This document shows, one piece after another, positions 56,427 through 57,444 of a DNA stretch of 64,000 nt. The notes under the pieces were generated by a model. It worked only from the letters and a program-made list of their open reading frames with translations, did not search any database and had not been told where the DNA came from. Source of the stretch: a virus; the IMG/VR virus record IMGVR_UViG_3300045988_123629; one strand, given 5' to 3'. Positions within the stretch are counted from its first letter, which is position 1, and every line of letters begins with the position of its first letter. Made by a program: the position numbers and the translations under genes.

Positions 56427-56479
56427 TGGTGCGGGCGACGAGACTCGAACTCGTACGAGGGTCTACCTCATGGGATTTT

Positions 56480-57217
56480 CTTACTACTCTATGTCACCAT
56501 AGCCACATTTCTGTGTTGTAGTCTGGAATACGTCTTTATCATATGCACGACTTGCACTTAGATAGTTGGTATATACTCTCTACACATTTATTTGGAACAA
56601 TTTTTTCCACGATAAGAAGAAGTTTTTGCATGACAATTTGGACATAATAATTGGAAATTATCTAATTCATTATGAAAATGATTTCCATCTTTATGATGAA
56701 GTTCTAAAGGAATTGGTTCTCCTAACCATTCGGTTAACCCACAACATTCACATTTATATTCTTTATAACCTTCATCAAGAAGTTTTTTTCTTACTTTATT
56801 ACTTTGTATATCAATACTTTTTTCTAAGTATTCTAACAAAGATAATTCATGTCCATTAGGTTTTGATAATCCTTTGCAACCTCGATTTCCGGCATATTCA
56901 AGACCAAGCTTTTTTAATACTGGATTAATTGTCTTAGGATTACAACCCAATTCTCTTGCCATTTGAGCTTTAGTCTTGCCTTCAGCAATCCATTGCTCAA
57001 TTTCTTCTTTGCGTTCTAAAATATCAGTTCTCATTTATATTACCTCTCTTTCATTATTATTTAAAAATTGAAAGAGATATTTTAATGAGTGTCGTCCAAT
57101 TTTTTAGAATGTGTTCCAAAACTTAGCACGGCGTTCTCTTAGCCATTCGCCGTTTTAGCCAACTTCTACTCTAAGAGTTTCCTCTTAGGCACTCCATTTT
57201 AATGTTTGCTAAGTCAA
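56480..57217 (-). ncRNA. group I intron (738 nt) in tRNA-Leu(UAA) carrying an HNH homing endonuclease ORF
   Basis: It lies exactly between the tRNA halves at the classic 34/35 insertion site. The 5' exon ends in U and the intron ends in G (...GTAAG). The 3' region contains a GACGTATTCCAGACTACAACACAG segment that resembles the group I core. Confidence 0.6.
56588..57034 (-). CDS. HNH homing endonuclease encoded inside the tRNA-Leu group I intron
   Basis: Track ORF of 148 aa. It has an N-terminal HTH (KTKAQMARELGCNPKTI) and an HNH core (CECCG...ELHHKDGNHFHNELDNFQLLCPNCHA). Confidence 0.65.
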   Translation of the reverse strand: MRTDILERKEEIEQWIAEGKTKAQMARELGCNPKTINPVLKKLGLEYAGNRGCKGLSKPNGHELSLLEYLEKSIDIQSNKVRKKLLDEGYKEYKCECCGLTEWLGEPIPLELHHKDGNHFHNELDNFQLLCPNCHAKTSSYRGKNCSK

Positions 57218-57444
57218 AAGTCCCAGGCGTCTGCCAGTTCCGCCACGCCCGCAGATATCAGCTTTAATGTCAGCCAACAACTTCCTCTTCAAGTTCCAGT
57301 CAGAATTACTGACGCTCAGTCCGTCTATTTTTTCTCTCGCGGGCTTTAGATAATATTTACAAGACCTCAAATAACATCCTTGAAGTTTGGTAAAGATTTT
57401 ATTCTTATATTTGCTGATAAGGTCTTTCTTCATTTTATATAAAT

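Follow-up and report, generated by a model that had tools for sequence, protein, structure and literature searches.

The 64,000-nucleotide (nt) stretch of viral DNA analysed here (the window; IMG/VR virus record IMGVR_UViG_3300045988_123629) carries on its minus strand a tRNA-Leu(UAA) gene that is split into two exons by a 738-nt insert. Intron-less alleles of the gene in related phage contigs confirm the split, and it is not a chance resemblance. Comparison with related loci and with known introns suggests that the insert is, in all likelihood, a mobile, self-splicing group I intron of the kind found in bacterial tRNA genes (IC3-like), located between U34 and A35 of the phage tRNA. The insert also contains an open reading frame (ORF) for a putative HNH homing endonuclease. 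The parts of the gene are:

57218..57252, minus strand: exon 1 of tRNA-Leu(UAA), 35 nt, with the 5ʹ strand of the acceptor stem, the D arm, the 5ʹ strand of the anticodon stem, C32, U33 and U34
56480..57217, minus strand: predicted group I intron (IC3-like), 738 nt, with boundaries from intron-less alleles and a core from covariation and alignment with IC3 introns
56588..57034, minus strand: predicted HNH homing-endonuclease ORF, 148 amino acids, in the terminal P6 loop, where the last codons double as the 3ʹ strand of P6a
56427..56479, minus strand: exon 2 of tRNA-Leu(UAA), 53 nt, from A35 and A36 onward, with the variable arm, the T arm, the 3ʹ strand of the acceptor stem, A73 and CCA

When exon 1 (57252..57218; minus-strand letters GCGGGCGTGGCGGAACTGGCAGACGCCTGGGACTT) is joined to exon 2 (56479..56427; AAAATCCCATGAGGTAGACCCTCGTACGAGTTCGAGTCTCGTCGCCCGCACCA), ARAGORN calls an 88-nt tRNA-Leu(taa). 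In the joined tRNA, the acceptor stem is 7 bp long and the 3-bp D stem closes a loop of 11 nt; the anticodon loop reads CTTAAAA, the variable arm is long, and a T arm, A73 and an encoded CCA complete the molecule. ARAGORN run on the genomic sequence with introns permitted finds the gene with ends at 57252 and 56427, matching the exon-joined call; neither ARAGORN without introns nor the Rfam tRNA model calls it. We scanned viral contigs for alleles of the gene using an 18-mer from exon 1. In the related phage contigs L001, L003, L004 and L007, the same gene is uninterrupted, with GGGACTT joined directly to AAAATCCC at the predicted point. The 738-nt insert is common to the window, L002 and L005, and variant inserts occupy the same point in L008, L010 and L011. 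Hence, the insert is a presence/absence polymorphism among related phage contigs and, because intron-less alleles exist, its boundaries are known to the nucleotide. Two alternative ARAGORN solutions, tRNA-Stop(tta) and tRNA-Lys(ttt), arise when other intron positions are forced, and are excluded by the same alleles. The first-pass annotation of this DNA had proposed a canonical tRNA-Leu assembled from these two exons, a 5ʹ exon ending in U, an insert ending in G, and insertion at the site of the cyanobacterial and plastid tRNA-Leu(UAA) intron (34/35; PMC13011429). All of these proposals hold, the terminal U and G being read directly in the sequence.

The case for a group I ribozyme comes from a family of about 35 loci in phage and metagenome contigs, recovered with short core-motif scans. 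The family includes ORF-less members of 229–256 nt (L014, L016, L023 and L209) and larger members of ~520 nt (L030–L087). A 15-mer scan of viral contigs yielded mostly chance matches, yet was the source of the larger members; a 14-base pattern scan of metagenomes also yielded mostly chance matches, and a scan of genomes for the core motif yielded one contig of a metagenome-assembled genome, L209. An alignment was made of 22 distinct variants after long loops had been trimmed. The core shared by the family has the order P1-P2-P3-P4-P6-P7-P8-P9.0-P9 (P, paired; J, joining; L, loop), with the following predicted elements in the window; percentages are the share of alignment cells that are paired:

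57191..57194, minus strand: internal guide GAGU, forming P1 with exon ACUU (57221..57218), with a U.G wobble at the 5ʹ splice site
57171..57188, minus strand: P2 hairpin CUAAGAG-GAAA-CUCUUAG, with a GAAA tetraloop; 7/7 pairs change on both sides in the family
57159..57164, minus strand: 5ʹ strand of P3, AGUUGG, which pairs with CCAACU and is followed by J3/4
57158..57153, minus strand: J3/4, CUAAAA
57129..57152, minus strand: P4, CGGCG/CGCCG, capped by a 14-nt P5/L5 remnant; 100% paired
57112..57120, minus strand: 5ʹ strand of P6a, UUUGGAACA, which pairs with 56599..56591
56591..56599, minus strand: 3ʹ strand of P6a, UGUUCCAAA, which is also the last ORF codons ahead of the stop
56574..56580, minus strand: 5ʹ strand of P7, G(A)GAGUA, in the R element, with a bulged A; 100% paired with 56530..56525
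56564..56569, minus strand: 3ʹ strand of P3, CCAACU, pseudoknot partner of 57164..57159
56539..56562, minus strand: P8 hairpin, with the 11-nt motif UCUAAG...UAUGA; the outer pair changes from C-G to U-A on both sides
56525..56538, minus strand: J8/7, UAAAGACG, and 3ʹ strand of P7, UAUUCC (S element), aligning with GGUAAAGAGAGAGUCC of the Nostoc intron
56483..56522, minus strand: P9.0 (ACUAC/GUAGU) around P9 (CACA-GAAA-UGUG) and P9a (CUAUG-GUGA-CAUAG)
56480, minus strand: terminal guanosine (omega-G) of the intron, a G in every parsed family member

A GCUAAG element stands between P4 and P6/P6a, the R element that contains the 5ʹ strand of P7 reads GUGUAGAGAGUA, and J7/3 is UAUA, followed by the 3ʹ strand of P3. 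The stop codon of the ORF abuts the R element. We take the P8 motif to be a receptor for a GAAA tetraloop, and the G-C pair of P7 beside the bulged A would be the guanosine-binding site. An alternative 5ʹ strand for P7 (R element), TTCCAGACTAC, was dropped: covariation puts P7 at GAGAGUA/UAYUCC and makes ACUAC/GUAGU P9.0, and the alternative was given up because the partner of P3 would lie on the wrong side. A search of the window found no second copy of the intron core.

The alignment supports this structure strongly. In the proposed pairing, 92.8% of cells are paired, as compared with 27–43% after the 3ʹ partners are slid by 1–3 columns; changes on both sides occur at 19 of 40 pairs, and none of 500 shuffles matches any observed measure. 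The P3 pseudoknot is the clearest case, with covariation at 6/6 pairs, 97.7% of cells paired and about eight complementary sequence versions. P4, P7, P8 and P9.0 are 95–100% paired. Substitutions in P4 replace C-G with U-A and G-C with G.U; P9.0 occurs as ACCAC/GUGGU and GCCAC/GUGGC; and the P9 stem varies in sequence among members while retaining its pairing. P7 is invariant within the alignment, with G(A)G.../...CC placed as in reference introns, and a compensatory version, GAGACUA/UAGUCC, is present in L022 and L123. A P6a closing helix is found in nearly every variant with an L6 of at least 16 nt, with unrelated sequences in different variants, and is weak in L037. The RNA flanks are more conserved than the ORF between them. 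Thus, a complete P3–P9 core, supported by covariation, can be folded from the insert, and the refuting condition set by the first-pass annotation, the lack of such a core, does not apply.

The guide sequence provides a further line of evidence, since it tracks the exon in four contexts and remains complementary to it. The exon/guide combinations are CUU/GAG for tRNA-Leu at 34/35, ACU/GGU for tRNA-Leu at 33/34 (L056), UCU/GGA for tRNA-Arg(UCU) at 36/37, and CAU/GUG in L087. For the Leu, Arg and Ile cases tested, the reconstructed spliced products are valid tRNAs according to ARAGORN. Judged from the sequence, the matching of guide and exon, the U at the end of the 5ʹ exon, the terminal G and the P3/P7 core are together the defining features of a group I intron.

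A more divergent family member lies in a tRNA-like gene in L024 (~2430..2790, plus strand), and another is the second intron of L022. The spliced anticodon loop in these cases would read CUUCAAA (anticodon UCA, reading UGA), and by eye the flanking ORFs appear to hold in-frame TGA codons. ARAGORN makes no tRNA call on the spliced product, and we tentatively suggest that the gene encodes a suppressor tRNA.

How does the window intron relate to known tRNA introns? PMC13011429 describes a 249-nt intron at site 34/35 of tRNA-Leu(UAA) in Nostoc PCC 7120, labelled IC3 and used by its authors as a positive control for self-splicing in vitro; the same paper lists a Bacteroidota tRNA-Leu(UAA) intron (GCF_030845195.1) at site 33/34, also labelled IC3. 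In MAFFT alignments the window core is collinear with both, at ~47% identity to the Nostoc intron and ~52% to the Bacteroidota intron; the two reference introns are 58% identical to each other. Collinearity extends over the guide and P2, P3, J3/4, P4, GCYAAG, GUGYAGAGA, the closing pairs of P8, GGUAAAGA...UCCA, P9.0 and the terminal G. The window and Nostoc introns share the host gene, the site between U34 and A35, and the guide GAG paired with exon CUU, followed by a P2 hairpin; their R (GUGYAGAGA) and S (GGUAAAGA...UCCA) elements, P9.0 and terminal G are collinear. The window intron differs in having an ORF in the P6 loop, the 11-nt P8 receptor motif, and G-Y as the third P7 pair (C-G in Nostoc). 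The Bacteroidota intron is the closest reference, sharing J2/3 AGUAGAA, P8 CCUAAG...UAUGG, AGACCAC...UGGUAAG (P9.0) and a GNRA-capped P9a with the window intron. It differs in its insertion site, 33/34, and in being located in a bacterial chromosome, whereas the window copy is phage-borne. The Azoarcus tRNA-Ile(CAU) IC3 intron shares the small architecture, a short P1 made of anticodon-loop bases, P4 as CGGCG/CGCCG, and GUGUAGAGACUA as its R element; its P2 has a GAAA loop that docks into an 11-nt receptor in P8. It is not known to carry an ORF, and differs further in its bacterial chromosomal location and in its different tRNA.

The IC3 label is provisional. A Patescibacteria intron aligns with the window core about equally well (49% identity with MAFFT), and most Patescibacteria introns have been assigned to IA (PMC13011429). 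Moreover, the shared site and subgroup are no proof of direct descent from the cyanobacterial intron, because the cores are only ~47% identical.

Several observations weigh against a self-splicing group I intron. At E<=10, no Rfam family, including RF00028, matches the intron in the region 54000..59500 or in four ORF-bearing and four ORF-less relatives (ORF-less members tested, 235–316 nt), and at gathering thresholds a search of the whole window leaves the intron without a match to any family, group I or otherwise. The search with RF00028 that the first-pass annotation had recommended thus gave no match in the window or its relatives. P1 has four pairs followed by a G.G mismatch, P5 is a mere 14-nt loop, and P6 proper consists of two pairs and a U.U mismatch. 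As the third P7 pair, G-U or G-C takes the place of the C-G found in the IC3 references, and the 3ʹ strand of P3 is broken in L014. Furthermore, the pairing statistics are inflated by shared descent, because many family members are close relatives. It has been reported that RF00028 fails on some divergent tRNA introns, for which a dedicated model, gpI_bact_tRNA.cm, is needed (PMC13011429); hence, the objection from Rfam is weakened, though not removed. Because RF00028 gives nothing, the group I identity proposed in the first-pass annotation rests on comparative structure and alignment with IC3 reference introns, and the covarying core, the guide matching, the terminal G and the IC3 alignment all support it.

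We consider it unlikely that the insert is a genuine group I intron that splices only with the aid of a protein, be it a chaperone of the phage or its host, or the endonuclease in a maturase role. The short P1 (four pairs), the 14-nt P5 loop and a P6 of two to three pairs are what such dependence would lead one to expect, and the phage encodes an RNA ligase and a Ro-like RNA-binding protein. However, the ORF-less members of 229–256 nt retain the same minimal core, which means that the endonuclease cannot be a general maturase. In addition, the GAAA loop of P2 and the 11-nt receptor of P8 would provide tertiary bracing; small self-splicing IC3 introns use bracing of this kind.

There are two further explanations. 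The insert could be a decaying, inactive intron, with the tRNA-Leu copy a pseudogene left by an old invasion. The failure of Rfam to match the insert fits with decay, as does L014, with its disrupted P3 strand and a tRNA without CCA. In the window, however, both canonical exons and the ORF are intact, a protein identical to the ORF product is present in 305 metagenome blocks, and the promoter matches the consensus fully; moreover, the core has compensatory changes across ~20 variants. We therefore regard decay as very improbable. The other explanation, that the insert is not group I at all, being either an endonuclease cassette that disrupts the tRNA gene or another or new class of ribozyme, scarcely merits belief. 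It would account for the failure of every Rfam model on the insert, and the closest characterised relative of the ORF product, T5 HegA, is free-standing within a tRNA cluster (PMC2330249). On the other hand, there are ORF-less versions at the same site, the flanks are more conserved than the ORF, the insert has a P3/P7 pseudoknot, a U.G splice site and a terminal G, and it aligns element for element with IC3 introns. A self-splicing group I intron therefore remains the reading that we favour by a wide measure.

The intron ORF matches PHROG HNH families (E=4e-27) and is 53% identical to HegA/F-TflIV of phage T5 over the full 148 amino acids (E=1e-50). The HegA match spans the motif HHKDGN...N...CPNCH, and the HNH core includes a CxxC zinc-binding pair. 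Matches to Pfam HTH_38 and HNH fall just under the curated cut-offs (for HNH, 18.8 bits as compared with 21.4). Hence, of the helix-turn-helix plus HNH endonuclease annotated previously at 56588..57034, the HNH part is well supported and the helix-turn-helix part is weak (HTH_38 being below its cut-off). HegA is an HNH endonuclease encoded free-standing in the tRNA gene cluster of T5 (PMC2330249). Like the window protein, it has an N-terminal helix-turn-helix region, a CxxC...HH...N...CxxCH core and a tie to tRNA genes; it differs in being 227 amino acids long and free-standing between tRNA genes, whereas the window ORF is intronic and encodes 148 amino acids. More than 3,000 homologues of the ORF product were found, and the identical 148-amino acid protein is present in 305 blocks of a metagenome index, in contigs of up to 197 kb that are mostly from the human gut. 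The ribosome-binding site of the ORF would be partly hidden in RNA structure:

57045..57077, minus strand: predicted hairpin UCUCUUUCA/UGAAAGAGA, covering most of the Shine-Dalgarno sequence of the ORF; the minimum free energy z-score of -2.35 is a modest signal

By reading, L011 has an apparent equivalent of this Shine-Dalgarno hairpin with a different sequence.

Some of the intron HNH ORFs contain in-frame TAG and no other stop codons: there are three TAG codons in L011 and L008, and one in L015 and L019. L026 and L027 have CAG (Gln) at the codon that corresponds to the TAG of L015 and L019. In L012, L017 and L018, a tRNA with anticodon CTA adjoins the intron-bearing tRNA-Leu. These features agree with phages in which TAG is recoded to Gln; in such phages, synthesis of the endonuclease might have to await the code switch.

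Between the window and L017, the introns agree at 714 of 738 positions (96.7%), as compared with 77% and 75% identity for the two exons and 57% for the upstream flanks. Conversely, L011 has a tRNA gene nearly identical to that of the window (35/35 positions in exon 1 and 51/53 in exon 2) and an intron that is 78% identical. The endonuclease genes differ too: three types of HNH occupy the P6 loop of the same intron core, namely the window type, a 175-amino acid HNH in L015, L019, L026 and L027, and another HNH in L045. L022 and L123 have an HNH ORF located 5ʹ of the guide sequence. The intron, the exons and the endonuclease genes thus have separate histories, as expected for homing, and the occurrence of a near-identical intron in diverged exons indicates that homing has taken place.

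L010 (13199..14094) has the same ribozyme core with the P6 loop closed by a small hairpin. A 201-amino acid LAGLIDADG_2 ORF (E=1.7e-30) lies between the 5ʹ strand of P7 and the 3ʹ strand of P3, a position that corresponds to that of P7.1/P7.2 in IA introns.

We propose the following sequence of events. The tRNA-Leu gene would be transcribed from its own consensus promoter, and the intron would fold into P1–P9, with exon ACUU and guide GAGU forming P1 and a U.G wobble marking the splice site. Bound by P7, an external guanosine would attack after U34, and the freed 3ʹ-OH of U34 would then attack after the terminal G at 56480, ligating the exons to give a functional tRNA-Leu that reads UUA. The HNH endonuclease would be made from the terminal loop of P6, with its ribosome-binding site partly hidden in the hairpin. 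Its targets may be intron-less tRNA-Leu alleles in co-infecting phages, which it would cut or nick, such that repair from the intron-bearing copy spreads the intron together with the endonuclease gene.

Upstream of the gene are the following signals:

57445..57473, minus strand: sigma-70-type promoter of the tRNA-Leu unit, TTGACA, 17 nt, TATAAT; 12/12 consensus match
57253..57438, minus strand: leader, ~185 nt, from the promoter to the 5ʹ end of the tRNA, as read from the sequence

The annotated consensus promoter is thus borne out, and the leader is ~185 nt long rather than the ~175 nt claimed. The leader has no Rfam match; it is identical to that of L002 at 148 of 150 positions, and 57–61% identical to those of L005 and L017. 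Three promoters of the same format and with 12/12 matches are found on the minus strand (57445..57473, 57645..57673 and 58849..58877), one for each tRNA transcription unit, and the leaders downstream of them are alike (GAAAG...AAAGAC). The GC content of the window is 32%, and in 14 long ORFs UUA accounts for 32% of Leu codons, so that the phage plausibly benefits from a tRNA-Leu(UAA).

The source of the window is a large gut phage without a close relative among deposited phage genomes. A blastn search with an ORF-less intron gave zero matches to 50,697 deposited phage genomes, and a megablast search of deposited phage genomes with 24 kb of the window matched only tRNA fragments; hence, the phage has no annotated relative in the deposited phage collection. 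Its gene products include topoisomerase II, PhoH, ligases and a Ro-like protein. Genes for RNA repair or quality control, together with large non-coding RNAs, accompany the tRNA arrays of these phages. In the window, the genes encode the Ro-like RNA-binding protein (phrog_850) and, in addition, an RNA ligase (phrog_968), at 50968..52533 and 40218..41603. Among the related contigs, L014 (7507..8092) and L016 (5882..6477) have a ROOL RNA beside tRNA arrays (290–306 bits), and there are sub-threshold matches to Y-RNA-like (YrlA) RNA in L016 and L020 (L020 6729..6831).

The tRNA cluster around the split gene has other unusual features. A RAGATH-33 RNA (RF03102; 56285..56413, minus strand; 124.5 bits, above the gathering score) begins 13 nt past the CCA of tRNA-Leu. 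It is also located 3ʹ of the intron-less alleles in L001, L004 and L007, and is not found in L003 or L010. The literature that we searched contained no mention of RAGATH-33.

In tRNA-Lys(UUU) (55067..55209, minus strand), a 68-nt element (55109..55176) lies between U34 and U35. The fold of the insert is itself a cloverleaf, reported by ARAGORN only with the -mt option, that comprises a 7-bp acceptor stem, T arm, discriminator base and CCA. Related contigs L003, L007, L021 and L212 have an uninterrupted tRNA-Lys with the loop CTTTTAA. Three unrelated cases of tRNA-like inserts were found in other phages (L027, L082 and L215), two in tRNA-Lys(UUU) and one in tRNA-Thr(UGU); in each, a canonical tRNA is restored exactly once the CCA-ended acceptor/T-arm element is removed. 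The 68-nt insert is too small to be a group I intron. One possibility is that it is a protein-spliced "tRNA-like intron" (processed by RNase P, a 3ʹ nuclease and an RNA ligase); alternatively, it may be a captured complementary DNA of a tRNA.

A second anomaly is an apparently circularly permuted tRNA-Tyr(GUA) (57505..57606, minus strand; promoter 57645..57673). The anticodon arm, the variable arm, the T arm, the 3ʹ acceptor strand and CCA come first and, after a 6-nt linker, are followed by the 5ʹ acceptor strand, the D arm and the 5ʹ strand of the anticodon stem. Placed in normal order, the pieces yield an 84-nt tRNA-Tyr with one C.C mismatch according to ARAGORN. The permuted order is kept in L003, L007, L211, L213 and L217. 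The leader is complementary to the trailer (AAGACUU/AAGUCUU), and a single compensatory change occurs here in L007. Rfam gives only weak matches to permuted transfer-messenger RNA, and the literature searched yielded no account of a phage tRNA gene in permuted order. The tRNA-Lys with an insert and the permuted tRNA-Tyr are unexplained by known mechanisms, and may be more noteworthy than the intron.

What is the significance of such an intron in a phage? Group I introns of tRNA-Leu(UAA) are ancient, mostly immobile introns of bacteria and plastids. The window has an intron of this type in a phage tRNA gene, with an endonuclease that appears to be in working order and direct population evidence of movement, and the intron family is common in gut phage contigs. 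It resembles phage introns with homing endonucleases, such as those of T4 td, nrdB and sunY and of the SPO1 and Bastille DNA polymerase genes, in its proposed lifestyle, that of a self-splicing intron of a lytic phage with a homing-endonuclease ORF looped out from a peripheral helix. In contrast, the T4, SPO1 and Bastille introns are all located in protein-coding genes. Indeed, according to a 2014 review (PMC3984707), every phage intron observed by then was in a protein-coding gene, despite the many tRNA genes of phages. In the literature searched, the coverage of which was incomplete, we came across no subsequent account of a group I intron within a phage tRNA gene. The kind of intron is already known: an HNH gene has been recorded in a Bacteroidota tRNA-Leu(UAA) intron (PMC13011429), and ribozyme type, insertion site and HNH association are all known from bacteria.

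Because default ARAGORN, tRNA models and all Rfam models miss these introns, the tRNA repertoires of phages are under-counted wherever such introns occur, and this extends to apparent suppressor tRNA genes of recoded phages. The ORF-less, HNH and LAGLIDADG versions of one core also form a natural series with which to study the colonisation of introns by endonucleases. A broader proposal, which we put forward tentatively and would not bet on, is that these loci represent the first described lineage of mobile IC3-type introns in phage tRNA genes. One core may move among the anticodon loops of tRNA-Leu, tRNA-Arg and tRNA-Ile genes in gut phages, and possibly of their suppressor tRNA genes too, through the retuning of a guide of 3–4 nt and the swapping of endonuclease cassettes (HNH types and LAGLIDADG). 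If this is true, tRNA maturation, and the stop-codon-recoded endonuclease of some members, would be timed with the takeover of translation by the phage or with a switch of its genetic code.

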